22,667 bases of DNA from a virus (taxonomy: Duplodnaviria; Heunggongvirae; Uroviricota; Caudoviricetes), in the IMG/VR virus record IMGVR_UViG_2778261501_000002, positions 1 through 22,667 of that record; one strand, 5' to 3'. Shown piece after piece: positions 9,703 through 20,611 of the stretch. The number at the start of each line of letters is the position of its first letter. Position 1 is the stretch's first letter. The position numbers and the translations under genes were made by a program. The notes below the pieces were generated by a model, which did no database searches, was not told where the DNA came from, and saw only the letters and a program-made list of their open reading frames with translations.

Positions 9703-10926
9703 ATGAAATACAAGCCGGATCAATACATCATATCTGATAGTTACGGAGTTTATTACGTCAGGATTTCAATTCCTGTATGGCTTCGTAATGCATTTGGTGG
9801 AAGAAAAACTCTCGTCCGTAGTCTGAACACTTCCGATCTTCGTGTGGCTCGTAGGAAGCGTGATGTTATAGCCGACGAATTTCACCACATCAGGCAAATT
9901 GCAGAGCCGCCAAAACCGGACAGCTTGCAGGACACGATCAGCTTTTTAAAGAGCGTGGCTAAGTACGCGAAAGCTGCCCCGAAAGCATCAGCTCCGATTA
10001 TCTACCAATGCCCCTCTCTGAATAAGATGTTAGAGATTTACCTCACGCATAACGCTGATCGCCTGAAAATGGGAACATTAAGCAAGACCAGAAAAGCCGT
10101 TGAACTGTTCCTGAATTACCTGCGAAAGAAGGATGTTGAACTAAACGATATCAACCGTACCACCGTTACAGGCTGGCTTGATCATCTCCGAGAGACAAAG
10201 GCAGTCCAGACAGTGGCTAACTACCTATCAGCAATGGCAAACATTCTCGATCTTGCCTCTTCCCGATACCAGGACGCCCCACCGCTGGAAACTAACGTGT
10301 TCAGGGGGCATAAACTCAACACAGCGCAGAGCCGCCAGAGTTACGAGGCATTCACGGACGAAGAAATTACGAAGCTCATTAGCACGTTTAACAAGTTAGG
10401 AGAGGACGAATTAAGGGATGTGAGCGCCATCGCCGCTTATAGCGGAATGCGCATCAATGAAATAGCCAGTTTGAAATCTGACAATATCCGTGAAGTTGAG
10501 GGGGTGTTATGTTTCGAGGTGACGGAGGGTAAGACACGCAATGCGGCGCGGTTGGTTCCACTTCATAGTGCGATTAGAAAAATGGTTCTGGAACGCTGCC
10601 AGAAGCCGCACAACGGCTTTTTATTCTACCGTGCAAGTGTGACCAAGAGACAGGACGGCAAGCGCTCCTCATGGCACGTAAACCGCTTTGGACGGCTTAA
10701 ACGCGATATTCTCCCAGGGCAGGAAAACAAGGTGTTTCACTCGTACCGCCATGCAGTGATCAGTAAGCTAAACGCCGCCGGAGTGGATGAATCTCGTATT
10801 GCCTTGCTCGCGGGTCACTCATTTGGAGAAACTGAGTCTTTCAAGACGTATTCGAAGAGTGTTCCTGAGCGTATTATGAAGGAGTTAGCGGGGTATATTG
10901 AATTAATAAATTACAACGTCCAGTAA
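9703..10926 (+). CDS. Tyrosine recombinase/integrase (second, distinct integrase)
   Basis: 407-aa ORF; catalytic motifs MRINEIASL (box I Arg), HSYRH, GHSF, and Tyr in FKTYSK; unrelated in sequence to the upstream integrase. Confidence 0.85.
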   Translation: MKYKPDQYIISDSYGVYYVRISIPVWLRNAFGGRKTLVRSLNTSDLRVARRKRDVIADEFHHIRQIAEPPKPDSLQDTISFLKSVAKYAKAAPKASAPIIYQCPSLNKMLEIYLTHNADRLKMGTLSKTRKAVELFLNYLRKKDVELNDINRTTVTGWLDHLRETKAVQTVANYLSAMANILDLASSRYQDAPPLETNVFRGHKLNTAQSRQSYEAFTDEEITKLISTFNKLGEDELRDVSAIAAYSGMRINEIASLKSDNIREVEGVLCFEVTEGKTRNAARLVPLHSAIRKMVLERCQKPHNGFLFYRASVTKRQDGKRSSWHVNRFGRLKRDILPGQENKVFHSYRHAVISKLNAAGVDESRIALLAGHSFGETESFKTYSKSVPERIMKELAGYIELINYNVQ

Positions 10927-10931
10927 TTAAG

Positions 10932-10950
10932 GGGGGATTATACATCCCCC
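10932..10950. terminator. Hairpin between convergent genes (bidirectional terminator candidate)
   Basis: GGGGGAT-tatac-ATCCCCC, 7-bp stem, between the integrase stop (10926) and the 92-aa gene stop (10957); T-rich flank on the minus-strand side. Confidence 0.45.
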
Positions 10951-10956
10951 GATAAC

Positions 10957-11235
10957 TCATTTATTCCATTCGTTTTGAATTTGATTCTCAACTGCTGGCA
11001 AAAGGTTATACCAGGAAGCAGAGTTATTCTTAGCATCAACAACAATCAACTTATCATCGCTATCCATCGCTGCCCGAACTTTTCTGGCAGCCTCTTCAAC
11101 CGAATAATTCGAATTTACGTACCAGTTCGACTCGGTAACTTTTGCCCAGTTGCCCAAGGCCTTGATAGCATCATGCACAGCAGCATAATCTTTGGTTTTG
11201 ATCAAGTCATAGGTTACAAACAAGTTGTTAGCCAT
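10957..11235 (-). CDS. Hypothetical protein (92 aa)
   Basis: GGAGAG SD 6 nt upstream of ATG 11233-11235; alternating strand/helix pattern suggests a small alpha/beta fold; no family recognised. Confidence 0.5.
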   Translation of the reverse strand: MANNLFVTYDLIKTKDYAAVHDAIKALGNWAKVTESNWYVNSNYSVEEAARKVRAAMDSDDKLIVVDAKNNSASWYNLLPAVENQIQNEWNK

Positions 11236-11293
11236 TTAATTCTCTCCAGACATTCAAATGAATAAGCACCGCTATGGGCACTTTGAGATATTT

Positions 11294-11422
11294 TTATTTC
11301 TTAGCTTTCTTGGTAGGGATTTTGATAGTTTCAGTTATCGTAGTATCAGGATGTCGTTTAGCTTCAATGGGCTTAACAAACTGACCAGTTATCGCAGAAC
11401 GAACTACTGTTTTCTTAGCCAT
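11294..11422 (-). CDS. Hypothetical small basic protein (42 aa)
   Basis: GAGGTG SD 5 nt upstream of ATG 11420-11422; lysine-rich; not in the supplied track (under 60 aa). Confidence 0.35.
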   Translation of the reverse strand: MAKKTVVRSAITGQFVKPIEAKRHPDTTITETIKIPTKKAKK

Positions 11423-11573
11423 AAAAACACCTCATCTTGGAGATAAAGAGTGAACTGCTTACCCTTTTAAGGGTAAGGGACAAACGAAGCGGCGTCAAAG
11501 AAAAACACCACATATACACATCCTTTACAAACCGAGCGCAATATGTGGTATTCCCATGTGATTTACATCACAA

Positions 11574-13424
11574 TCATCCCCCTGTGGATGACTGACCGCT
11601 CAAGGCTGATAGCGTAAGGCTACGAGTGAATGAATCCGCACTCGCTTTTGCAGACCAGTCGATATAGTCAGACAATCGAGAAACATCACTTTGCAGAGTC
11701 AATCCCACTTGTGGATTCACTTGTAGGTTGAATATCGGGTTCAACGTGTACGCTGGCGCGTTGCTGCTGTTGAGCGACATTGCCGAAGCACGGAGATTTT
11801 CCCCTGAAAGGCTGTATTGATTAGTCGCTGTCCCTGCTTGCTGATTACCAACGCCCAACCAATCCATGATAGCCGGAGCCACTGAACGGGTATCAAACCC
11901 CGTTTTATCCTGAATCCAATCGGCCGTAGCATTCGCAGAGCCACCCACAGCACCATCATAAAGATTTTGAACAGCAGGTTTCTTAGTATCGCTAAACCAT
12001 TCAGGGTGTTGTTGGCGGAGAGTACTGTTAAGATCAGACACTACGCTGGAGATTTCTCCAACAAAGCCCGTCACCTGTTTAGCCAGGTCGCCTAATCCCT
12101 CTCCGAGCATACCAGCAGATTCTGTTATCACTTTGGTGTTCTTCACCAGGTCGTCACCACCATCAGCAAAGCCTTTCATAAAGCCTGTAAACATGCTGTT
12201 ATCAACGCCATTCATGAGATTACCCATCGCTACACTCAGATCACCATATGCAAGAGTTTGCTTGATCTGCTCCTCGTTAAGAGTTTGACCACTATCGACA
12301 AGCTGTTTCAGCGTCTTGTTATATTCTGCACCGTTGTTCATGAACATATCGGTGTAGTGCATCAGGTCATCACCTAAACTCTCTATAAGCGTACCAATCT
12401 GAGCCTGTGACATACCACGGCGTTGCCCTTCATTGGTAACTGCTTGAAGTAGATCAGCAGGACGATCCTGGAAGGATTTAATCTGTTCTTTGCCCCATCC
12501 AAACTTATTCATAATAGAAGTGATACCACCATCGCCGCCTTTCCATTCGCCATTTTTAAACTGGCTATCGTTCAGGGTCATAGCGATACGTTCACGTACA
12601 TCTTTGAAATTGTCCGTCACTTTATCGACATTGGCGCTATCAACTCCGTGTTGCTGCCCCCATGCCACCATCGTTTTAACTACGTTAGGATTAGTCTTAA
12701 CAAGTTCCGATTTTCTAACCAAGTCAAGATTTTCATTCCCTTTGTCAACAATTCGCTGCCCCACTCCGAGGGAGCCAGCCGTTAACGCAAGGCTTCCTAA
12801 TACCCCACCACCGACGATAGGAGCATTCCCGCCCTTCTGAGCCTTTAGCTTAGTGGCTGCTGCGGCATACTGGGTACGCTGTGCCTGTGTCACTTTCGCT
12901 TGTTGTGCGGCTTCTCTGCGTAACAGGGTTACACGCTCGCGTATAAGCGCATTCATACGTTGAGAGCTAATATTCCCCTTCGCAAACTCTTCGCTTTGCT
13001 GATGAATATAACGTAACGCTTCATACTGAGATTTAGGATCAAGCCCGTATTTACCTTTAATTCCTGACACTTGTAGCCCTGCATGGCGAAGTTTAAGCTC
13101 GGCTGTCTCTTGGCGCTTCTGTAGCTGCTGCTTCGCTTTCAGATTGGCCTTTTCATCCCTGGCTTTCTGCTTCTCCGCCGCACGTTGGGCTTTCATTTCC
13201 TTCGTATCACGAGGCTTATCATTAAAACGTGCATCATCGGCTTGTTGACGGGCTTTCTGTCTGCGCTGCTTCAGATCCTGGAAGCGAATCTTGGGATCGG
13301 CTATTTTCTGGAAGTGCTTTTGAAGGTTATCCGCTGCGGCCTTAGCCTCTGCAATACTCCCTTTGTCAACGGTGAAAGTTACGGTGTTGACGATCTTACT
13401 TGTATTAATCTCAAGCATCGCCAC
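11574..13424 (-). CDS. Phage tail tape-measure-like protein
   Basis: 616-aa ORF with a long charged coiled-coil N-terminal region and Gly-rich hydrophobic segments (GGGVLGSLALTAGSLGVGQ). Start is ambiguous: GTG 13424 or ATG 13418. Confidence 0.45.
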   Translation of the reverse strand: MAMLEINTSKIVNTVTFTVDKGSIAEAKAAADNLQKHFQKIADPKIRFQDLKQRRQKARQQADDARFNDKPRDTKEMKAQRAAEKQKARDEKANLKAKQQLQKRQETAELKLRHAGLQVSGIKGKYGLDPKSQYEALRYIHQQSEEFAKGNISSQRMNALIRERVTLLRREAAQQAKVTQAQRTQYAAAATKLKAQKGGNAPIVGGGVLGSLALTAGSLGVGQRIVDKGNENLDLVRKSELVKTNPNVVKTMVAWGQQHGVDSANVDKVTDNFKDVRERIAMTLNDSQFKNGEWKGGDGGITSIMNKFGWGKEQIKSFQDRPADLLQAVTNEGQRRGMSQAQIGTLIESLGDDLMHYTDMFMNNGAEYNKTLKQLVDSGQTLNEEQIKQTLAYGDLSVAMGNLMNGVDNSMFTGFMKGFADGGDDLVKNTKVITESAGMLGEGLGDLAKQVTGFVGEISSVVSDLNSTLRQQHPEWFSDTKKPAVQNLYDGAVGGSANATADWIQDKTGFDTRSVAPAIMDWLGVGNQQAGTATNQYSLSGENLRASAMSLNSSNAPAYTLNPIFNLQVNPQVGLTLQSDVSRLSDYIDWSAKASADSFTRSLTLSALSGQSSTGG

Positions 13425-13608
13425 CGCCTTTTTTACTCACCAGATAATTAAGTGCATCTGATACACTACGCCCACGATGTAATAACTGACGTAGATGACC
13501 GTGATCTATTTCAAGCACACGACACACTCCCGCCAGATTTAATAACTCTTCTGCTGTTTCAGCATTTACGGCGAGGTGAAGCCCCGCGCTTTTTACAATC
13601 ACTTGCAT
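13411..13608 (-). CDS. Hypothetical protein (65 aa)
   Basis: GAGGAA SD 6 nt upstream of ATG 13606-13608; stop overlaps the start of the tape-measure-like gene. Confidence 0.4.
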   Translation of the reverse strand: MQVIVKSAGLHLAVNAETAEELLNLAGVCRVLEIDHGHLRQLLHRGRSVSDALNYLVSKKGGGDA

Positions 13609-13630
13609 TTATCTTTCCTCATTCTGGAAA

Positions 13631-13665
13631 TAAAAAAGGGCGGGAACACTGGGGAGATGTTCCCA
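13631..13665 (-). terminator. Rho-independent terminator downstream of the capsid gene
   Basis: On the minus strand: GGGAACA stem with 10-nt loop, then GCCC and TTTTTTATTT. Confidence 0.5.
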
Positions 13666-13727
13666 ACGTTCACACGCCCTATTCAATAGCCTGATTATTT
13701 CCAGCGGGTCAGGCTCCCGCTTGCTCA

Positions 13728-14759
13728 TTAAGCAGTGATGGTGATCTTCACCTGCATACCTAACGCATGGTTCACTGGTAATGCGCTGTTTTCGTGCATA
13801 ACGTGGTAAGCATCGCCGCGCTCGCTCAGGTAGCCCCAAGAGTAGTATTCAGCAGGTGCAGCATCGATCAGCGCAAAGTTACCAGAGGCAGCGCCGTAGA
13901 TGTTCTGATAAGCATTTGTGCCTTTACTGAACACCGGAACCGCCACCATGTCAGCATCATCTGGCATCTGTGCAAGGATCAGCGGATCTGTCACTTTAAC
14001 AATGTCGATAGGCGCACCAGGTAGGCTAAACGTACTAACACCAGGGAGAAGCTCGTGACGCTGGTAGAATAGGTTACGGTCGTCATATGGCGCTACATAC
14101 TGGAACGCCTTAGACATACTGTCAGAGAAGCGAATCTGGCTAAATGCAGCAGGTTTAGCGAATACGATCACTCGTTCAATCTGTCCAGCCAATCCACCTG
14201 CGGCAGCCTGAACTTTGTCTAAGATCGCATCAAAATCCTGTGCCGCTGTCGCTGTGCTCACGCTGGCTGTCATTGGCACCACACCGAACAGTTCAGCATA
14301 AGAGATCAGTAGGTCATCAGTTGCAGGCGTATAAACTTCACCTTTGAACAGAGCACGGGCCAGGTAAGACTCACGGGTACGCAGATAAGCAATCTTATGT
14401 TTGCCAGTGTATTCGGTGTACAGGTCGGTAACGGTTTGCTCGTAGTCCGTTCCCTGCACTCTGCGGCCTTGTACGTCTACAGGTTTAAACTCATCTTCCC
14501 TTGCAAACCAAGGAATCTCGATAAGGTATTCTTTGCCATTCTGACGCGCGGTAGTGTCGTGGTTTGATGAATAACGGCTCTGCGGGGTGTTAAACAGGCT
14601 GTAGTTATCATCCAGAAGCTGTGTCACCACCACTTTCGGATTCTGAACACCTACCCCGTCGAATAGGTCGAGGGCATTCATAAGATAGTTACGTTCCGGC
14701 AGAGCCTGGAAGATTGGCGCTAAATCGACCATCTCACGCCCAATTGCGATTTTACTCAT
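13728..14759 (-). CDS. Phage major capsid protein, lambda gpE-like
   Basis: 343-aa ORF, AAGGAAG SD; size and C-terminal pattern (WGYLSERGDAYHVMHENSALP) resemble the lambda gpE family as recalled; preceded by a roughly 110-120-aa gene as in the lambda D-E arrangement. Confidence 0.5.
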   Translation of the reverse strand: MSKIAIGREMVDLAPIFQALPERNYLMNALDLFDGVGVQNPKVVVTQLLDDNYSLFNTPQSRYSSNHDTTARQNGKEYLIEIPWFAREDEFKPVDVQGRRVQGTDYEQTVTDLYTEYTGKHKIAYLRTRESYLARALFKGEVYTPATDDLLISYAELFGVVPMTASVSTATAAQDFDAILDKVQAAAGGLAGQIERVIVFAKPAAFSQIRFSDSMSKAFQYVAPYDDRNLFYQRHELLPGVSTFSLPGAPIDIVKVTDPLILAQMPDDADMVAVPVFSKGTNAYQNIYGAASGNFALIDAAPAEYYSWGYLSERGDAYHVMHENSALPVNHALGMQVKITITA

Positions 14760-14775
14760 TATTTATCTTCCTTGA

Positions 14776-15135
14776 TTAAGAGGTGAAGAATGGACGGCAT
14801 ACGAACCCTTTGGATTCGAGCGTGGTGATAGCTGCGGCGTGATTAGCTGCGTGCAGGTTGTCGGCTTTCAGTGCTACGAAGCTACCAACATTAGGCGCAC
14901 GTAGGACATTCACGGTTTTACCGTCGCCAGCACTCACGAAATCACTTACCACCACAAAGGCATCATCGCCGGAGGTGTATAGAGCGCCATCAGCGCCGAT
15001 AACATCGCCGCATTCAATATCTGCTGGCAGGTCGAAAACACGGCCTTCTACGACTGCAAAAGAATCAGTGGCGTAGCTCAATACGTCAGTGAAACTCTTA
15101 CGAATTGGGAAAAGTTCGGTTAGGTCTACAATCAT
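14776..15135 (-). CDS. Putative head decoration-like protein (119 aa)
   Basis: Position and size relative to the capsid gene; ATGA overlap with the upstream 71-aa gene. Assigned from gene order only. Confidence 0.3.
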   Translation of the reverse strand: MIVDLTELFPIRKSFTDVLSYATDSFAVVEGRVFDLPADIECGDVIGADGALYTSGDDAFVVVSDFVSAGDGKTVNVLRAPNVGSFVALKADNLHAANHAAAITTLESKGFVCRPFFTS

Positions 15136-15347
15136 TGTTGTTTGATTTCCTTGGATTTGATTGCGATCCGTTCCTGCATACTAAGTTGAGGTGTGTCCTC
15201 AGAAGGGAAATACTGGTCTACAGCTTTTTCTATTTCTTCAACGGTACATCCTGCCATTTCAGCCACTTTAGCTATTAACTCAGGATTAACTTGAATCACT
15301 TCGGATTTGTATTTTAGGATTCGGTCGCGATTGTTTATTAAGAACAT
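15132..15347 (-). CDS. Hypothetical protein (71 aa), first gene of the head-gene operon
   Basis: AAGGAA SD 7 nt upstream of ATG 15345-15347; translationally coupled to the next gene. Confidence 0.4.
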   Translation of the reverse strand: MFLINNRDRILKYKSEVIQVNPELIAKVAEMAGCTVEEIEKAVDQYFPSEDTPQLSMQERIAIKSKEIKQQ

Positions 15348-15415
15348 TGTGTTGTTCCTTCGCGTTATAACTGCGTTTATCCTTCCATTGATAACGGAAG
15401 TGTTACATGCAGATT

Positions 15416-15440
15416 GTTAAAAAGGGGCGATTAAGCCCCT
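15416..15440 (-). terminator. Rho-independent terminator candidate
   Basis: On the minus strand: AGGGGC-uuaauc-GCCCCU followed by UUUUAAC. Confidence 0.4.
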
Positions 15441-15732
15441 GGAGAATATGCCCTTGTTAGAAAGCATTCTGTTAAAATCATTTTCGTTTCGGAGGATTAT
15501 GATGTTAAAGAATGGCTTCTTGAAAAAATGAAGGGTGCAACTGTTACGAATAACAGAAGTAGGATCGCCCGTCATTGCTCCCACTTCAAAACAGAAGCCC
15601 TTCTGTCATGGCGAGAAGTGGGAATGGAATCTCAATATCACCACTGGAATAGTAATAAGAGATTGCCAGCCTGAACGTAACTACCGCTGACGGCGTTTAT
15701 TCAGTCTGACTACATTCATCCTAACGGAATGA

Positions 15733-15966
15733 ATGAGCAAAGAGCGAATGCCCTTTCTGAAAAAGTCGGAGATGCGCGGTGATTGCGATGCAATACCAAC
15801 ACAACGAGATATTACATCCCGCGCATTCCTTCGGAACAAACAAGACAAAGAACCAACACTTTCAGAAATAGCATTCAGAGGGAGAGAATGCCGCTATGGG
15901 AACGGCATTCTCAAGGAGTGCGTATTGACATACGAGGGTGAAGTGATTCGAATACTTACCCTATAA
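15733..15966 (+). CDS. Hypothetical ORF (77 aa), weakly supported
   Basis: Open frame with only a weak SD; convergent with the gene at 16014-16352. Confidence 0.2.
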   Translation: MSKERMPFLKKSEMRGDCDAIPTQRDITSRAFLRNKQDKEPTLSEIAFRGRECRYGNGILKECVLTYEGEVIRILTL

Positions 15967-16013
15967 CTCATTATGACACATATAGCACATAATGTCAAGA
16001 CATTTAGTAACTT

Positions 16014-16352
16014 TTATGTTATGGCGCATTCTTCCGCGATCTGGATGGAAAGCTCTCCGAGTTCAACGGTGATGTATTGCAGAGAGCAAGCAAGCTCCTC
16101 AAGGTCATTAGCTACACGCCACGCTTCTTCTGGTGTGATCGAACTGCCGTCACGCTGCACCAAACGAGCTACAGACGTTTGCAGATGTTCAAGGGCAGTG
16201 ATTGCCTGTTCAGTGTATTGCACCGCTTCCAGAAGCGCGGAGGGCGTTCTCTCACGCCACGCTGCATTAACAAGCTGTAAGGTTGGTAAATGCCAGTTGT
16301 CGTGGAAAGAGTTAATTAGGGTGTTCACTGTGTCCATAGTTTTATTATTCAT
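16014..16352 (-). CDS. Hypothetical protein (~112 aa)
   Basis: AGGAAAA SD upstream of ATG 16350-16352, which overlaps the stop of the upstream 127-aa gene; the track's longer 144-aa start at 16448 is less likely. Confidence 0.4.
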   Translation of the reverse strand: MNNKTMDTVNTLINSFHDNWHLPTLQLVNAAWRERTPSALLEAVQYTEQAITALEHLQTSVARLVQRDGSSITPEEAWRVANDLEELACSLQYITVELGELSIQIAEECAIT

Positions 16353-16728
16353 TGTTTTCCTTGTCGTCAAAGAGAATATCAAACTCTTGTGTGTGCTGGG
16401 ATAGCCCCCAGGTTTGACAATACCCAATATAATCGGCGTAATGTTCAAATCCTGCTATTTGCCATTTCTTGAGATGGCTACTATCTATAATATATTCGCG
16501 TCTGCGTCGTGGTTTGTAATAAACGTTATCCGTTGACGATAGAACATCCTGCAATAGTTCAAACTCTAATCCATTTGGTACTACTGCGGGATATTCTTTA
16601 ATAGTTGTCACCATCTCACCAGGAATAGACTCTCGTGCGAGGTCTTGTAGAGAAGAGGTGTATTTACGTTTGCTGATGCGTGTGGCTTTTTCGATTCTAA
16701 CAAGGTTACTTCGTTCTTTTCGTCCCAT
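16345..16728 (-). CDS. Hypothetical protein (127 aa)
   Basis: GAGGAA SD upstream of ATG 16726-16728; basic N-terminus. Confidence 0.45.
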   Translation of the reverse strand: MGRKERSNLVRIEKATRISKRKYTSSLQDLARESIPGEMVTTIKEYPAVVPNGLEFELLQDVLSSTDNVYYKPRRRREYIIDSSHLKKWQIAGFEHYADYIGYCQTWGLSQHTQEFDILFDDKENNE

Positions 16729-16832
16729 TCATTCCTCGTAGAGGGGAAACTCCTTGTCTGGTTATAACGTAAACGCCATAGAATATGGTGAACCACCATA
16801 AAGCAGTAATCATAAAAGTTTCCCGATTGTTG

Positions 16833-17294
16833 TTATTTAGTCGTAAGTGTAATGTCGCATCCTTTACCGCGACCAGGTTTGATTAACGTAGTAGTTAGAT
16901 AATCATTGCGGCGAAGCTTGCGAATCGCACTGGATACAGTTGCCACACTTATCCCCAACACTATCGCTATTGACTCCTGTTTCACATTTGTTAATGATGG
17001 CAGTGATTCGAGGTGCATTAATACCAGACGTTCCGAAGGAGACAGATTCTTATCGTGAAGATGTGGGGATGTCATTTTACATTCTATCTCTTTCGGTGGC
17101 TTCATCGCTGCATTGAATAGCGTAACAAGAGCATTAGCGTAACTTGATTCACCTCGCTCAGCGTAAACATCTACAAGTTCTTGCGCTTGTTCGAATGCAA
17201 CACCTCTTTCAACTTCTGGATTTAATAAACTGGCAAGATGGATGATGTTAAGATCACGTTCGTTGTATTGTTTGGGTATAACCGTTTTCAGCAT
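16833..17294 (-). CDS. HTH-domain protein (153 aa), putative regulator or replication-associated
   Basis: C-terminal winged-helix-like segment (VKQESIAIVLGISVATVSSAIRKLRRNDYL); start overlaps the upstream gene's stop. Confidence 0.5.
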   Translation of the reverse strand: MLKTVIPKQYNERDLNIIHLASLLNPEVERGVAFEQAQELVDVYAERGESSYANALVTLFNAAMKPPKEIECKMTSPHLHDKNLSPSERLVLMHLESLPSLTNVKQESIAIVLGISVATVSSAIRKLRRNDYLTTTLIKPGRGKGCDITLTTK

Positions 17295-18028
17295 AAATGT
17301 TCTATTTCCTCGTAGATTGGTTTAAGTTTTGGATTCTTCTCTGTGTCCAGGTATCCGTTAATAAGTAGCCATCTGATTTTCGGATGTTGTGAAACTGGTA
17401 GATTCTTTTCAGGATTCTCCCATTCATCCCGATAACCCTCAAGAAAGTTTAAATTAACTGGCTCTATCTTAATATCTTTAGCTGGAATGGAGGCGGGTTT
17501 CTTCGTAGGCATTTTCTTTGGCTTCTCCGGCTTCGGATCTGCTTTGGCCTCTTCTGGCACTGACTGCTGTTTTTCTTCCTCTGGCGCTACGTCTTCTTTA
17601 GCTTTGCCAAACACGGGATGTTTCAGACAATCTACCCATTCCGGCGCGGAATCACGTTCCATCGCATTACGATCACGTTCAAAGGTGAAGTTTTGCGGCG
17701 TGAGTGGCGTTATAGTCCATTGGTTAGAGCGCTTTGGCTTATTACTGGCGATCAGTCCGATTTTCTTCAACTTTGCAACAATACGTGTTGCCGTAGCCGA
17801 GCTGACACCAATACTTGCACCAAGTTGATCAATGTCATCGTAATAAGTACCGCCCAACTCTATCGCAAAGCGATAATAACGATGGCGCATTCTGACGTAA
17901 AACTGCTTATCAGCAGGAGACAGGGACTCTGTTACGCCTGTTTTAAGATTGGTGATCCTGGTGCATTCGTTAAATGCGTCTTCGGTGTTGGTGAAACTAA
18001 AAGCCTTACTGTTTATAATGTCAGTCAT
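17288..18028 (-). CDS. HTH-domain protein (246 aa) with K/E/P-rich linker, putative regulator or replication initiator-like
   Basis: HTH segment (IDQLGASIGVSSATATRIVAKLKKIGLI), low-complexity charged linker, then a C-terminal domain. Confidence 0.5.
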   Translation of the reverse strand: MTDIINSKAFSFTNTEDAFNECTRITNLKTGVTESLSPADKQFYVRMRHRYYRFAIELGGTYYDDIDQLGASIGVSSATATRIVAKLKKIGLIASNKPKRSNQWTITPLTPQNFTFERDRNAMERDSAPEWVDCLKHPVFGKAKEDVAPEEEKQQSVPEEAKADPKPEKPKKMPTKKPASIPAKDIKIEPVNLNFLEGYRDEWENPEKNLPVSQHPKIRWLLINGYLDTEKNPKLKPIYEEIEHLC

Positions 18029-18042
18029 GTTAGGGTGTATCC

Positions 18043-18219
18043 TTATTTGGTAGAACGTTCTCCGTTCTTAATTGATGTGGAAAGTGTGGTTGCAGCGTCA
18101 ATTAACATCTCCTGCACTGTTACGCCTCTCGCTCGCGCCTCTTTGAACAAAGTACTAAACACTTCATCCGGCAGTTTTACGAATGTTCCGGCTGGTTTCT
18201 TCTTCTGGATTTCGCTCAT
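18043..18219 (-). CDS. Small ribbon-helix-helix-like DNA-binding protein (58 aa)
   Basis: AGGAG SD 7 nt upstream of ATG 18217-18219; predicted strand then helices (GTFVKLPDEVFSTLFKEARARGVTVQEMLIDAA); not in the supplied track (under 60 aa). Confidence 0.45.
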   Translation of the reverse strand: MSEIQKKKPAGTFVKLPDEVFSTLFKEARARGVTVQEMLIDAATTLSTSIKNGERSTK

Positions 18220-18237
18220 TTGGTTTCTCCTTCTGGT

Positions 18238-18486
18238 TTATTCGTTGGTGGTGGTTTCAGCCTGTTCAGCTTTCCATTGATCGTAAAGTTCGATTCCTTT
18301 ACGCAATCTTTCAGCGTGTTCGAAATATCCTTGCCGTTGTGCGGCTGCTCGCTGGCTGTTTATTGCATTTCGCGTCTGGCTTCCGGCCTTTAAAGCCTCG
18401 AAGACAAGTTCTGGATTAAAATACTTAATTTTGGTTCTCCTTGCGTTAGAAACACAGAAACACCATCCAGGGAGAACGTTAATCAC
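18238..18486 (-). CDS. Hypothetical protein, start uncertain (GTG at 18486, or in-frame ATT at 18429 behind a strong SD)
   Basis: The only strong SD (AAGGAG, minus strand at 18442-18437) sits 7 nt upstream of an in-frame ATT codon; there is no ATG/GTG/TTG within reach of it. Confidence 0.3.
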   Translation of the reverse strand: MINVLPGWCFCVSNARRTKIKYFNPELVFEALKAGSQTRNAINSQRAAAQRQGYFEHAERLRKGIELYDQWKAEQAETTTNE

Positions 18487-19164
18487 GTTGCCTGATAGTG
18501 CGGTGTAAGTTGGATTGTTTGCGTTAGGCTGGATGCCTGAGATGAGGACGGGATGAATGCTTTCATTACCCTACATCATTTACTTTAACATGAAATGATT
18601 TAAATGTCAACACTTATTTAAATCCCTTTCAAATTATAGCGCATTTCCACGTTGTGATCAACTCATTCATGTCATCATAAAACGCGGTCTATCGCTTTCT
18701 AACAGGTTTGAAAGCCTGAGAGTTGCAATCCCCTCCCTATCCTCTCAAATTCGCTCTCAGCGCGTCTGGGGCGTTCCGTTTGCGTTACCGCCGCCCTCTG
18801 GCACTTACTCCCGAAACCAATAGCACAACTACTGAGGGATAACGTTAGTTATCAGGATAGTAGGTGATGGTATTGGATTGAGGCTGGATGAACTGGAGCC
18901 ATCAGCGACCAGTGAATCCTTAGCCGTGGGCTAACTTTGCATGGATGAATGCGGAGCATGGAAGACAGGCAGAAGTTATGCTGAAAGACATTGCGCACAC
19001 GGCGCATAGCTTCTGTGCCTCGTTTCACGAGGGCGAAGCCCTGGCACAATCACAGACAGATGCGCTACGCTGCGTCGTGAGCGGCTGACCGAGTAGCCCC
19101 CAAAGGCGAATCAGGTCACTTGCCAGGCGATACGCGCCAGCAAAGCGAATCTTTAACAAGATCT

Positions 19165-19291
19165 TCTAAAAGCTCTCTTTTAGAGATCGCTTTTAGAATC
19201 TCTTTGTATAGAACATCAATTTGATGTGTAGTTTGCCGATCCATACATCAATTTGATGCGTATCCCATGCATCTATACATCATTTTGATGT
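19165..19291. promoter_or_regulatory. Operator/iteron-like repeat cluster
   Basis: Perfect inverted repeat TCTAAAAG-ctct-CTTTTAGA (19165-19184); three 13-bp palindromic repeats CATCA(A/T)-T-TTGATG at 19214-19226, 19246-19258 and 19278-19290 with exact 32-bp phasing. Confidence 0.55.
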
Positions 19292-20050
19292 ATAACGCCC
19301 CCAACTAACTCTGATTCATCCATGCAACAACACTAAGAGTAACGAGAGGTTATTCCTATCAAAACAACACGATAATCATAGCTAAGCCTATCTTAAATGA
19401 CAGGTAAAGATTGCCGTTGTTACATGGGTAAAGTTGCCATAGTCAGCAAGATAGTAACCATCACTCACTTTGCGTAAAGCCTTGCGCCATGCGGCTCACA
19501 GCGATCATTGTCCACAATGAGGAGTTTCATGACAGGTGCAATGTGCTGAACGAGTTTTCTAAAATGAAACGATGTTTCTTTTTCATGCCAAAATCCACCA
19601 ATTGATTAGCATTCTAATCATTTCATTACACACTCAGTTTCAAGTGCATAAACTCCGCATAATTTGTGCATACAGGCAGGTTAGCCCCGCCCTCGCCTAA
19701 CAACCTTACATTTATCAGATTTAAATCAATGAGATAGACAATAACCACACACAAGCATTGGTAGTGTGATGTTCCGCTGTTGCCGCTGTTCTTCGTGCAG
19801 AGTTGAGGATTTGGCAATGTTCAAACACATGTTTATAAATGCCAACATCATGATTTTGTTCAAGATATTTAGAGGAGAAGAAATTTTCGATCTGGAGGCG
19901 GCCCTGGAGGTCGTTAAGCACTGGACGCAATCGCGCCATTTACCACACACAAGACAGTTCGATTTTTGATCATTTATATTGCAACTTACTGAAATTGATC
20001 ATATTGTTTGTTTCGTTGAGTTTAGATGTGTGTCTTTATGGGAGGGTAAA

Positions 20051-20611
20051 TTGAACAGAGCAGTAGTGTTAGACGAACAGCAAGCCAAAGCGATCAGGGA
20101 GTGGCTAAACGCTCATAACAAGAGCCTGATAGCTGACGTTACGTTAATGATGCAAGCCGCTGTACTGCGTGTGGGGGATGCCGTAGCGTTACGCTTCGAC
20201 GAAGTGATCAACGGTGAGATTGACATAGAAGAACAGAAGACAGGGAAGCGTAAAGCCCTCACTCTCCCTGCTCCAGTGGTGCAGATGATTGCTCGTCGCC
20301 GTGCTGAGTATCCGCATGATGTGCATGTGTTCAGAAGCCAGCGTAACCGATCAATGAACAAGCAAGCGCCTGTACGACGCGAAGAAGTGAGCAAGCAGAT
20401 CGCAGAGGCCGCTAAAGCTATCGGTATTCATGGCACTGTATCAGCTCACAGCTTCCGCAAAGCTGGCGGGAATGCCATCTACAAGCGTTCAGCAAACAAC
20501 ATCGCTTTAGCTATGACCGTGCTTAATCACAGCAACATCACTGACACCAGGCGCTATCTGGATTTAGACAAGCAAGCCGTTAGCCGTGTGATCAATGAGA
20601 TGGACTTATAA
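20051..20611 (+). CDS. Small tyrosine recombinase, catalytic domain only (~186 aa)
   Basis: GGAGGG SD 4 nt upstream of in-frame TTG 20051 (the track start at 19979 is also TTG); motifs LRVGDAVALRF (box I Arg), HSFRKAGG and TRRY (catalytic Tyr); no N-terminal arm/core-binding domain. Confidence 0.65.
   Translation: MNRAVVLDEQQAKAIREWLNAHNKSLIADVTLMMQAAVLRVGDAVALRFDEVINGEIDIEEQKTGKRKALTLPAPVVQMIARRRAEYPHDVHVFRSQRNRSMNKQAPVRREEVSKQIAEAAKAIGIHGTVSAHSFRKAGGNAIYKRSANNIALAMTVLNHSNITDTRRYLDLDKQAVSRVINEMDL

Follow-up and report, generated by a model that had tools for sequence, protein, structure and literature searches.

The 22,667-nt stretch of DNA analysed here (the window) carries six open reading frames that lie on the minus strand and read in the same direction from 18486 to 16014, according to the ORF list with translations. 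They form a six-gene operon that extends from 18429 or 18486, depending on the start assigned to ORF1, to 16014 (Table 1). ORF1 and ORF2 are separated by 18 nt and ORF2 and ORF3 by 14 nt, ORF3 and ORF4 overlap by 7 nt, ORF4 and ORF5 are 104 nt apart, and ORF5 and ORF6 overlap by 8 nt; four of the five junctions are thus tight and one is loose. The operon described in an earlier note on this DNA does exist.

The island in the window has its host site at thrW in E. coli. The islands of this family are small, integrated at tRNA genes of enterobacteria, and carry a capsid gene. About 50 related islands were used for comparison: 52 loci for the start codon, 50 loci (39 leader haplotypes) for the leader, and 40 haplotypes for the Shine-Dalgarno (SD) sequence and the promoters. 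The promoters, the leader hairpin and ORF1 are constant among islands in which ORF2, Rep, ori and the accessory genes are exchanged.

Table 1. Coordinates of the genes and sequence features of the operon and its upstream region
Feature	Position	Strand	Description
ORF1	18238..18429	-	63 aa from ATT; 18238-18486 (82 aa, PGAP) from GTG
ORF2	18043..18219	-	58 aa; ribbon-helix-helix (RHH) by AF2 and Foldseek
ORF3	17288..18028	-	246 aa; N-terminal winged helix (DUF6945-like), charged linker, exchangeable C-terminal domain
ORF4	16833..17294	-	153 aa; HTH_36 (PF13730), 34.6 bits (cut-off 25), residues 82-133
ORF5	16345..16728	-	127 aa; kept in relatives as 128-129-aa homologues at the same position
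ORF6	16014..16352	-	112 aa; PGAP start ATG 16352; overlaps ORF5 stop by 8 nt
Promoter P2 (predicted)	18633..18661	-	TTGATC, 17 nt, TATAAT; consensus scan, 10/12 matches
Promoter P1 (predicted)	18582..18610	-	TTGACA, 17 nt, TAAAGT, TG extension; consensus scan
Leader	18430..18575	-	~146 nt; non-coding; conservation equal to that of coding sequence
Leader hairpin	18460..18501	-	outer stem GCACUAUC-AGG / CCUGGAUGGUGU; inner stem AACGU/ACGUU
U-rich tract	18448..18459	-	3' of hairpin; interrupted in the window (UUUCUGUGUUUCU)
SD of ORF1	18436..18442	-	AAGGAGA; unsubstituted in all 40 haplotypes
Proposed ORF1 initiation codon	18427..18429	-	ATT; in frame, 7 nt after GGAG
Palindromic 18-nt iterons	19213-19230, 19245-19262, 19277-19294		three copies (ACATCAAWTTGATGT), exactly 32 nt apart
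AT-rich inverted repeat	19150..19212		GATC sites; repeat I1; candidate DNA-unwinding region

Among the proteins of the module, ORF1 is the most conserved one, with 13, 3 and 37 variable columns at the first, second and third codon positions, respectively. Its AF2 model (pLDDT 88) predicts a three-helix protein (helices at residues 6-15, 20-32 and 36-61) for which no fold match was obtained in the PDB and no family in Pfam, PHROG or NCBIfam. For its part, ORF2 was modelled with a pLDDT of 80.8 as an extended segment (residues 11-17) followed by two helices (18-31 and 35-51), and all 50 of the 50 PDB matches listed by Foldseek were RHH proteins or domains (NikA, Arc, CopG, PutA, MatP and antitoxins), with probabilities of up to 0.95 and E values of 0.28 or worse. 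The small RHH-like protein of the earlier note is therefore borne out at the level of the fold. At the level of sequence, ORF2 of the window gave no Pfam, PHROG or NCBIfam match, including none to a Pfam RHH model; one of nine relatives matched TacA1 (0.0044), and a profile search against the PDB reached RHH antitoxins only at E values of 0.4 to 1.3. Neither ORF5 (Pfam, PHROG, NCBIfam) nor ORF6 yielded a match in family searches.

Promoters and untranslated leader

Upstream of ORF1, two tandem and conserved sigma-70 promoters that had been missed in the earlier note, P2 and P1, were predicted. The position and hexamers of P2 are kept in the relatives, and two distant loci, L054 and L055, also show a tandem arrangement. 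In P1, the first five bases of the -35 box (TTGAC) are invariant in the 40 haplotypes, the sixth being A or T, and the -10 box is TA(A/T/G)AGT. Transcription from P1 would start near 18575.

The resulting leader is non-coding. Its indels are not multiples of three, the 39 haplotypes being evenly distributed among the three length classes (13/13/13 for length modulo 3), and it shows no codon periodicity (heterozygosity by codon position of 1.33/0.73/1.15, versus 2.77/0.80/8.68 in ORF1 from the ATT onward). No Rfam match was found for it. Although the whole leader folds no better than shuffled sequences (z = -1.18), it contains a hairpin with a dG of -17.7 kcal/mol and a z score of -3.1 (range -2.5 to -4.2). 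Across 36 close relatives the stems of this hairpin hardly vary: four stem columns have single-sequence mismatches, and most of the variation is at loop and bulge positions. There is no covariation within the close clade; compensatory changes occur at three pairs in L054 and L055, the structure having been derived from the same sequences. Hairpin cells were paired in 92.8% of cases, compared with at most 48% in slid controls. UUUUUUGUAUCUUUUU comes after the stem in L054, and the U-tract is clear both in this locus (UUUUUU) and in L055. A simple terminator scan did not report the hairpin. Altogether, it is a terminator-like structure and a candidate attenuator or terminator, which the earlier note had not recorded.

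Two ATTTAAAT palindromes had been pointed out in the promoter region. The second of them lies at 18598-18605 rather than 18597-18604. The window contains three copies of this motif versus 0.75 expected, a number reached by 5 of 100 shuffles, and the promoter-region copy reads ATTGAAAT, CTTTGAAAT or ATTTGAAT in the relatives. Since the copies are neither conserved nor significant, a regulatory role for them is unsupported.

Start codon of ORF1

The strong SD followed 7 nt later by an in-frame ATT, noticed previously together with the lack of a canonical start nearby, was confirmed in the window, where the spacer between both elements is about 6 to 7 nt and GTG 18486 is the only in-frame canonical start upstream. 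Among the 40 haplotypes, the sole variant of the SD is a 1-nt insertion, AAGGAAGA, in L014 and L017. The length of the spacer is kept except for one locus with 6 nt, whereas its sequence is hypervariable (heterozygosity of 0.38, 0.43 and 0.30 at positions -5, -3 and -1, respectively). An invariant SD at the ideal distance combined with a hypervariable spacer is the signature expected of a primary initiation site. The ribosome-binding site is also a near-duplicate of that of ORF2 (AAGGAGAACCAAAATT versus AAGGAGAAACCAAATG, repeat D5).

The codon at the proposed start is ATT in 46 of the 52 loci, ATC in one and GTT in five, the latter forming one successful lineage in which ORF1 is intact. ATG, GTG or TTG occurs at this codon in no locus of the close clade. 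Nor is there any in-frame ATG, GTG or TTG in the transcribed leader of 27 of the 39 haplotypes (36 of the 50 loci). The frame in phase with the ATT is open for 44 to 50 codons upstream in most haplotypes. Frame-breaking indels lie upstream of the ATT, one of them within the spacer (L004), and protein-level constraint starts at this codon. Two distant homologues, P0164 and P0166, encoded in the syntenic islands L054 and L055, have TTG at the equivalent codon, preceded by AAGGAGA and AAAGGAGGA; P0164, detected by HMMER with 39% identity and beginning with 'MKYFN...', has its first residue aligned with the first of ORF1. L055 offers an alternative start, an in-frame ATG located six codons upstream.

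Taken together, the comparison of about 50 islands indicates, with good support, that ORF1 begins at a rare AUU behind a conserved ribosome-binding site, in agreement with the possible non-canonical start raised in the earlier note. Such a start would explain the three different models given for ORF1 by annotation pipelines (82 aa, 51 aa and uncalled).

Three other readings of ORF1 were weighed against the same data. According to the PGAP model (WP_060614981), ORF1 would encode 82 aa from GTG 18486, possibly coupled to a 27-codon leader ORF, and the ATT would be an internal Ile codon. This GTG is in frame, the leader ORF of the window (ATG at ~18566) terminates in a GTGA that overlaps it, and the ATT/ATC/GTT spectrum at 18429 is also that expected of an internal Ile/Val codon. 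Nevertheless, no more than 5 of the 39 haplotypes have GTG 18486, the others having GTT or GTA at this codon, and the GTG is placed in the inner stem of the conserved hairpin with only a weak AGG four nucleotides upstream. Furthermore, the 19 codons between it and the ATT show no coding periodicity and contain frame-breaking indels in L004, L011, L014 and L017, the ATG of the leader ORF is replaced by GAG in L008 and L009, and the distant homologues start at the ATT-equivalent codon. We thus regard the PGAP start as very unlikely.

Translation of ORF1 without direct AUU initiation is somewhat easier to accept, but still unlikely. It might proceed, for example, by re-initiation after a short upstream ORF (such as an invariant ATG-GTG mini-ORF in the hairpin arm), from another upstream near-cognate codon or by a frameshift out of the leader ORF. 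The mini-ORF (ATGGTGTTT...) stops in many haplotypes at a TAA overlapping the ATT (CATTAAG), the upstream frame is often open, and the GTT lineage keeps ORF1 intact although the site lacks a near-cognate codon. On the other hand, the mini-ORF lacks an SD, sits within the hairpin stem and ends at positions that vary with the haplotype (TCTAACGC or CATTAAG); no upstream frame or start is conserved, and both the invariant, ideally spaced SD with its hypervariable spacer and the canonical TTG of the distant homologues point to the ATT position itself. Finally, the absence of a canonical start and of a family match, together with the nucleotide-level conservation of the adjoining leader, might be read as a structured RNA or DNA element with an incidental SD-like sequence and no functional gene. 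This we consider extremely improbable given the strong third-position bias of ORF1 in both variable columns and heterozygosity, the retention of its reading frame and syntenic position in homologues with 39 to 41% identity, and its confident structural model.

Initiation at the AUU of ORF1 is thus the preferred reading. To our knowledge, only infC and pcnB have been experimentally confirmed as AUU-initiated genes in E. coli. Similarly to infC (IF3) and pcnB [poly(A) polymerase I], ORF1 has an AUU at a normal, functional distance from the SD, kept for the most part in close relatives, and no usable canonical start. The exchange among its relatives is start-like in the 46 loci with ATT and the two distant homologues with TTG, as opposed to the five with GTT and the one with ATC. 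Unlike those genes, ORF1 occupies the first position in the operon of a mobile element, has a GUU lineage and distant UUG versions, and its initiation is deduced from comparison alone. AUU is a near-cognate start with about 1 to 2% of the efficiency of AUG, confirmed for infC and pcnB (bioRxiv 10.1101/063800).

Proposed replication initiator and iterons

The 246-aa and 153-aa HTH proteins announced in the earlier note were corroborated by family searches, which assign winged-helix and HTH domains to ORF3 and ORF4. ORF3 scored 27.9 bits against Pfam DUF6945 (PF22182), 0.1 below the gathering cut-off of 28.0, and several of its relatives pass this threshold and are named DUF6945 proteins. Its PHROG matches were phrog_8102 'replication initiation protein' (5e-10), also matched by 16 of 18 relatives, and phrog_391 'O-like' (4e-5). 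The best matches among solved structures were the hypothetical protein 4ro3 and, weakly, RepA (4pta; E = 0.19), and no relatives were found in phage or plasmid collections. The start of ORF4 overlaps the ORF3 stop (ATGCTGA). In all 12 loci with a C1-type C terminus of ORF3 the 153-aa ORF4 comes next, and the other C types precede a 92- to 93-aa gene; ORF4 is accordingly proposed from the sequences as a partner of the ORF3 C-terminal domain. This pairing could also be mere physical linkage.

The repeats located at 19165-19291 in the earlier note are real (8 matches versus 0.29 expected, 0 of 100 shuffles), but their placement was revised to three palindromic iterons at 19213-19294. Four copies are present in the relatives, at spacings of 42/43, 32/33 and 32 nt, and relatives that share the same spacing display four different half-site types. 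The AT-rich GATC block adjoins the iterons and is conserved across islands with different iterons. In 30 of 31 loci, the class of the ORF3 N-domain corresponds one to one with that of the iterons, even though ORF3 is separated from the iterons by the leader, ORF1 and ORF2. The C-domain type of ORF3 and the type of ORF2, of which there are at least four, assort independently of the iteron class. Hence, the action of the RHH protein on these repeats, implied earlier, is unsupported. We propose that ORF3 is an iteron-binding replication initiator and the iteron block the origin.

The earlier note had left the choice between lysogeny and replication control; the latter is favoured because the N-domain of ORF3 matches phage initiator families and co-varies with the upstream iterons, and no repressor-type gene was identified. 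In a lysogeny or immunity switch of the Cro/repressor type, ORF3 and ORF4 would act as transcription factors, with the palindromes at 19213-19294 as operators. Relatives of ORF3 are indeed named ArsR or MarR family regulators in source databases, the repeats are palindromic, as operators usually are, and are found next to a divergent recombinase gene, ~600 nt further upstream than the promoters, and the operon has no helicase, primase or polymerase gene. We find such a switch rather unlikely, since the best family matches of ORF3 are initiators of phage replication, lambda O-like and DnaD-like families among them, and its architecture (DNA-binding N-domain, charged linker, swappable C-domain) is initiator-like. 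In addition, the repeats are helically phased, adjoin the conserved AT-rich block and stand clear of P1 and P2, and L040 carries a different Rep-like gene with its own direct-iteron array and AT-rich stretch.

Proposed mechanism and known systems

The best explanation of the region, which we hold with moderate confidence, mechanism included, is that it is the early/replication operon of a family of ~13-kb tRNA-integrated islands of Enterobacteriaceae. The tandem promoters P2 and P1 would produce an mRNA with a conserved untranslated leader, whose hairpin, located ~20 nt before the first ribosome-binding site, probably attenuates read-through. ORF1 would be translated from AUU 18429 behind the invariant AAGGAGA, GTG 18486 being unused, and the combination of a strong SD with a weak start, which is AUU here and UUG in the distant relatives, would keep its output low. 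AUU starts of the infC/pcnB type are expected to give low, IF3-sensitive translation, and by analogy the start of ORF1 may be IF3-sensitive. ORF2 would be an RHH DNA-binding protein, possibly a CopG-like regulator in front of the rep gene. The winged-helix N-domain of ORF3 would bind the phased palindromic iterons next to the AT-rich block, and its exchangeable C-domain would act together with ORF4, as lambda O does with P. ORF5 and ORF6 would be conserved proteins with no role assigned in this scheme.

As in lambda O/P and iteron plasmids, the putative initiator has a winged-helix N-domain, a flexible linker, a proposed C-terminal partner-binding domain and an overlapping next gene, and four phased repeats lie next to an AT-rich block, with the specificity domain and the repeats changing together. 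In contrast to those modules, the repeats are palindromes 32 nt apart and ~0.8 kb upstream of the operon, beyond the promoters, rather than within the initiator gene; ORF4, a small HTH_36 protein, is not homologous to lambda P, and the system has no sequence relative among deposited phages and plasmids. Similarly to CopG-RepB of the pMV158 family and Arc/Mnt, an RHH protein of 55 to 59 aa is located immediately upstream of the rep gene and co-transcribed with it, and the structural neighbours of ORF2 include Arc, CopG, ORF56 and RHH antitoxins. The differences from CopG-RepB are that no operator was identified, that the promoter region shows no obvious change to match the four ORF2 types and that the additional ORF1 precedes.

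The islands also resemble phage satellites (PICI/SaPI, cfPICI and P4) in being small, tRNA-integrated and integrase-bearing, with their own iteron replicon, few phage-structural homologues and a long leader; the alpha operon of P4 is controlled by termination in the leader. They differ in the absence, judged by family names, of alpA, pri-rep, terminase, portal, Sid/Psu/Delta and cos markers. The element encodes integrases, a gpE-family capsid protein, a phrog_16051 protein annotated as 'tape measure' and unassigned proteins, its only structural genes being those for the gpE-family protein and for one of 614 aa with relatives among Phapecoctavirus proteins. We know of no helper phage for this family. 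It is a rather doubtful possibility that the promoter, leader-hairpin and ORF1 cassette is the master induction switch of undescribed capsid-gene-carrying satellites of Enterobacteriaceae, maybe parasitising virulent Phapecoctavirus-like myophages; through the weak AUU/UUG start and the leader terminator, ORF1 and with it the replication of the island would then react to shifts in initiation fidelity or termination that helper infection brings about.

ORF1 would be a third AUU candidate, with a natural allelic series (AUU, AUC, GUU and UUG) behind one SD that is convenient for work on start-codon selection and IF3 discrimination. For the islands themselves, the analysis defines a modular replicon, in which the initiator N-domain would go with the iterons and the C-domain with the partner gene, and a conserved, putatively regulatory leader in a widespread and undescribed family.

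Start codon of the first gene

The six ORFs that the earlier note had described, with their junctions, the Shine-Dalgarno sequence (SD) and the in-frame ATT, were all borne out from the sequence; the ribosome-binding site of ORF1 is a near-copy of that of ORF2 (repeat D5). The GTG at 18486 is the sole in-frame canonical start in the window and is the one used by PGAP, and annotation pipelines rendered three different gene models for ORF1.

Features of the operon and its surroundings
Feature	Position	Strand	Remarks
P2	18661-18633	minus	TTGATC-17-TATAAT, sigma-70-type
P1	18610-18582	minus	TTGACA-17-TAAAGT, TG extension, sigma-70-type
Leader hairpin	18501-18460	minus	dG -17.7 kcal/mol, z = -3.1
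SD AAGGAGA	18442-18436	minus	upstream of ATT
ATT	18429-18427	minus	proposed ORF1 start
ORF2	18043-18219	minus	58 aa
ORF3	17288-18028	minus	246 aa
ORF4	16833-17294	minus	153 aa
ORF5	16345-16728	minus	127 aa
ORF6	16014-16352	minus	112 aa
Iterons	19213-19294, upstream of promoters		three palindromic 18-nt repeats ACATCAAWTTGATGT, 32 nt apart
Integrase	9703-10926		407 aa; element B, one flank of operon
614-aa protein	11574-13418		phrog_16051 match; same flank as the integrase
Capsid protein	13728-14759		lambda-gpE family (PF03864); same flank as the integrase
Non-coding stretch			~1.5 kb; opposite flank
Short tyrosine recombinase	20051-20611	plus	186 aa; opposite flank

The region spanning promoters, leader and ORF1 was aligned, with 13 loci at first and then with 40 distinct haplotypes from 52 loci. 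Protein-like evolution begins at the ATT: from there on, variable columns number 13, 3 and 37 at the first, second and third codon positions, and summed heterozygosities are 2.77, 0.80 and 8.68, respectively. This periodicity was absent upstream of the ATT, where indels of 1, 4 and 22 nt occur in the leader, its length modulo 3 is distributed 13/13/13 (39 haplotypes), and the spacer between SD and ATT has lost 1 nt at one locus (L004). None of the seven SD bases was substituted in any haplotype, a 1-nt insertion in one variant (L014 and L017) giving AAGGAAGA. Of the six spacer positions, three rank among the most variable of the region, and the codons ATT-AAG-TAT that follow are nearly invariant. 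An invariant SD, a variable spacer and a near-constant ATT-AAG-TAT form the pattern that would be expected of a real initiation site.

As for initiation at a canonical codon, in-frame ATG, GTG and TTG are absent from the whole transcribed leader in 27 of the 39 haplotypes (36 of the 50 loci), and the GTG of the window is present in 5 haplotypes of 39, being otherwise GTT or GTA. A conserved leader peptide (MKAF...) was also considered and ruled out: in L008 and L009 a GAG takes the place of its ATG, and both its length and its frame vary. That ATG had seemed to be kept in frame because the loci were chosen via gene-caller products, an ascertainment bias. The main caveat to an AUU start is the codon spectrum of the close clade, with ATT at 46 loci, ATC at 1 and GTT at 5, and never ATG, GTG or TTG. 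GUU, with two mismatches to AUG, is expected to be a very poor start, so that the GTT lineage would either make very little ORF1 or initiate in some other way. An exhaustive HMMER search rendered two distant ORF1 homologues (39 to 41% identity), both located in syntenic, far more divergent islands. In each of them, the codon equivalent to the ATT is TTG, preceded by AAGGAGA or AAAGGAGGA, and the homologous protein P0164 aligns with ORF1 from residue 1 to residue 1 ('MKYFN' versus 'IKYFN'). AUU is a documented near-cognate start, at about 1 to 2% of AUG, and has been confirmed for infC and pcnB of Escherichia coli (bioRxiv 10.1101/063800). On these comparisons, we consider that ORF1 probably initiates at AUU.

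Promoters and leader hairpin

P1 and P2 are kept across the clade, and the tandem layout is also found in the distant islands L054 and L055. Judged by eye, the P2-P1 sequence did not vary in step with ORF2 type. The ATTTAAAT palindromes previously pointed out in the promoter region, one of them placed at 18597-18604 (18598-18605 is the correct coordinate), showed neither significant enrichment nor conservation among relatives. Similarly, TAACGTTA was dropped as an enriched operator motif, with 13 matches in the window versus 7.6 expected, a nonsignificant difference.

The hairpin lies in the second half of the leader, which shows less variation per site (0.045) than ORF1 does at third codon positions (0.138). 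Its stems are nearly constant in 36 close relatives, variation falling mostly in unpaired parts (loop, bulge and internal loop), and RNAalifold found no covariation within this clade because the stems are almost unchanged there. The outer stem persists in L054 and L055 through three compensated pairs, a short loop takes the place of the inner stem, and UUUUUUGUAUCUUUUU or AUUUUUAUUAU comes after the hairpin; paired cells reached 92.8% in this comparison, versus at most 48% in slid controls. Two invariant G-U pairs favor a sense-strand RNA hairpin over a symmetric DNA operator, and we tentatively regard the hairpin as a candidate attenuator. The whole leader folded as RNA gave a nonsignificant z of -1.18, and an Rfam search of 15200-20200 rendered nothing above noise. 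Sequestration of the SD by an anti-SD GUUCUCC in the hairpin was dropped, the motif being missing from L054 and L055.

The palindrome CTAACGTTAG lies within the P1 spacer of both distant islands (L054, 4880-4910; L055, 912-940), and in the window clade the inner stem of the hairpin (18474-18490) is built from two AACGTT copies; CTAACGTTAG/AACGTT could be a shared operator motif, but showed no enrichment over the window in its entirety.

Operon proteins and proposed replication origin

For ORF1, the AF2 model shows three helices with good confidence (pLDDT 88) and has no neighbor in the PDB. ORF2 occurs as at least four sequence types, all with a strand-helix-helix pattern, and matched no curated sequence model. 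The small protein regarded as RHH-like in the earlier note would indeed be of this kind, since all PDB neighbors listed by Foldseek for the AF2 model of ORF2 (pLDDT 80.8) are proteins or domains of the ribbon-helix-helix fold; their E-values are weak, which is normal at about 45 residues. ORF3 matched DUF6945 slightly below threshold. It also matched PHROG replication-initiator families (phrog_8102 at 5e-10, and O-like), and so did 16 of 18 relatives; no match was found in phage and plasmid collections. ORF4 scored above the HTH_36 threshold. Single-sequence searches of the PDB with ORF3 and ORF4 gave nothing significant. ORF5 and ORF6 are conserved and had no family match.

Where the window has three iterons, relatives carry four, spaced 42/43, 32/33 and 32 nt apart. 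The iterons are adjoined by an AT-rich inverted repeat that contains GATC sites and is conserved. Four half-site classes were distinguished among the islands (CATCA, CCCTC, GGTGTC/GGCACC and ACGGG), at constant spacing. In 30 of 31 loci, iteron class is matched by the class of the N-terminal 115 residues of ORF3, with identities of 83 to 97% within and 43 to 78% between classes. The sole exception, L040, has an extra direct-repeat array and a different Rep-like gene. ORF2 type and ORF3 C-domain type are independent of iteron class, although ORF2, like ORF1 and the leader, stands between the iterons and ORF3 on the map. This indicates that the RHH protein is probably not the iteron binder and runs against its implied action at the 19165-19291 repeats. 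A C1-type C-domain is followed by the 153-aa ORF4 in 12 of 12 loci and the other types by a gene of 92 to 93 aa, an association that could be explained by physical linkage. Together, the initiator-family matches, the iteron/N-domain match and the C-domain/ORF4 association indicate a lambda O/P-like modular replicon, with ORF3 as its putative iteron-binding initiator. Of the 'lysogeny or replication control' previously proposed, replication is favored by the family matches and the iteron covariation.

Several further observations concern this region. The site near 19319-19336, where a fourth iteron would be expected, is degenerate in the window. The iterons and AT-rich block are enclosed between the two arms of a perfect 14-nt inverted repeat (TTGCATGGATGAAT / ATTCATCCATGCAA, at 18937-18950 and 19314-19327, 363 nt apart). 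A block of about 100 nt between origin and promoters (18792-18893), with the inverted repeat GATAAC-TAAC-GTTATC, is nearly invariant across islands differing in iterons, Rep and ORF2, and may serve in packaging, encode a small RNA or be recognized by a host factor. The 117-aa ORF called opposite the origin in L002 was judged spurious, its tblastn similarity reflecting DNA conservation. L040 contains a second origin-like array, of five to six direct repeats TACCCCTATCAA, with an AT-rich stretch (~660-800), and a different 200-aa winged-helix gene (1996-2599) replaces ORF3; other islands have still other Rep-like genes (196 to 278 aa) behind the common promoter-leader-ORF1 cassette. Protein P0013 (109 aa) has an N-terminal domain unrelated to ORF1, possibly a winged helix, and its C-terminal 25 residues (HAERLRKGIELYDQWKAEQAETTTN) are identical to those of ORF1 relatives, which suggests that some islands have had a domain exchanged where ORF1 stands. 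The 104 nt separating ORF4 from ORF5 are occupied by a 35-codon hydrophobic ORF (MITALWWFTIFYGVYVITRQ..., 16706-16813, minus strand); in L011 only a few nucleotides separate the two genes, so that this sequence could have been inserted.

The island and its setting

The window is matched with 100% identity in the E. coli AR_0128 chromosome and in eight further complete genomes, and lies in an array of islands adjoining tRNA-Thr (thrW) and proA. The gene order of element B, the tRNA-integrated island carrying the operon, was found again in tRNA-Gly islands of other E. coli strains, in Enterobacter, Citrobacter, Buttiauxella and Phytobacter, and in many metagenome contigs.

Besides its integrase, the whole island (window 9703-20611; also L009, 6156-20147) has an iteron replicon of its own, the capsid protein of the gpE family and the 614-aa protein, with no terminase, portal or tail genes, and looks like an undescribed phage-satellite-like element. 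Over two thirds of its length, the 614-aa protein shares about 40% identity with proteins of virulent Phapecoctavirus/Justusliebigvirus myophages of about 150 kb. A short tyrosine recombinase of 175 to 192 aa, comprising the catalytic domain only (also L002, 3798-4325, and L004, 3816-4376), is kept beyond the origin in every island examined, besides the full-length integrase at the opposite end, and may be an enzyme of multimer resolution or inversion. Directly after the ORF6 stop there is a near-consensus promoter (TTGACA, 17 nt, CATAAT, with TG; 15970-15998, minus strand), followed by about 620 nt without annotated genes and then by a cluster of 71-aa, 119-aa and capsid genes; the stretch 15348-16013 is possibly a second long leader controlling late genes. 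Literature searches on DUF6945, on a Phapecoctavirus satellite, or on a satellite with capsid, iteron and Klebsiella rendered no relevant paper. From the searches made, the island family appears to be undescribed, and no part of the operon appears to be a sequence member of any characterized family.

The operon would thus serve a mobile island as its early or replication module, and all of the parts are of known kinds. It resembles cop-rep operons in having an RHH regulator ahead of rep, known winged-helix initiators in pairing such a protein with iterons, P4 in its candidate leader terminator, and infC and pcnB in its probable non-AUG start. The AUU start, raised as a possibility in the earlier note and favored here by several independent comparative lines, would be the most noteworthy element of the operon.
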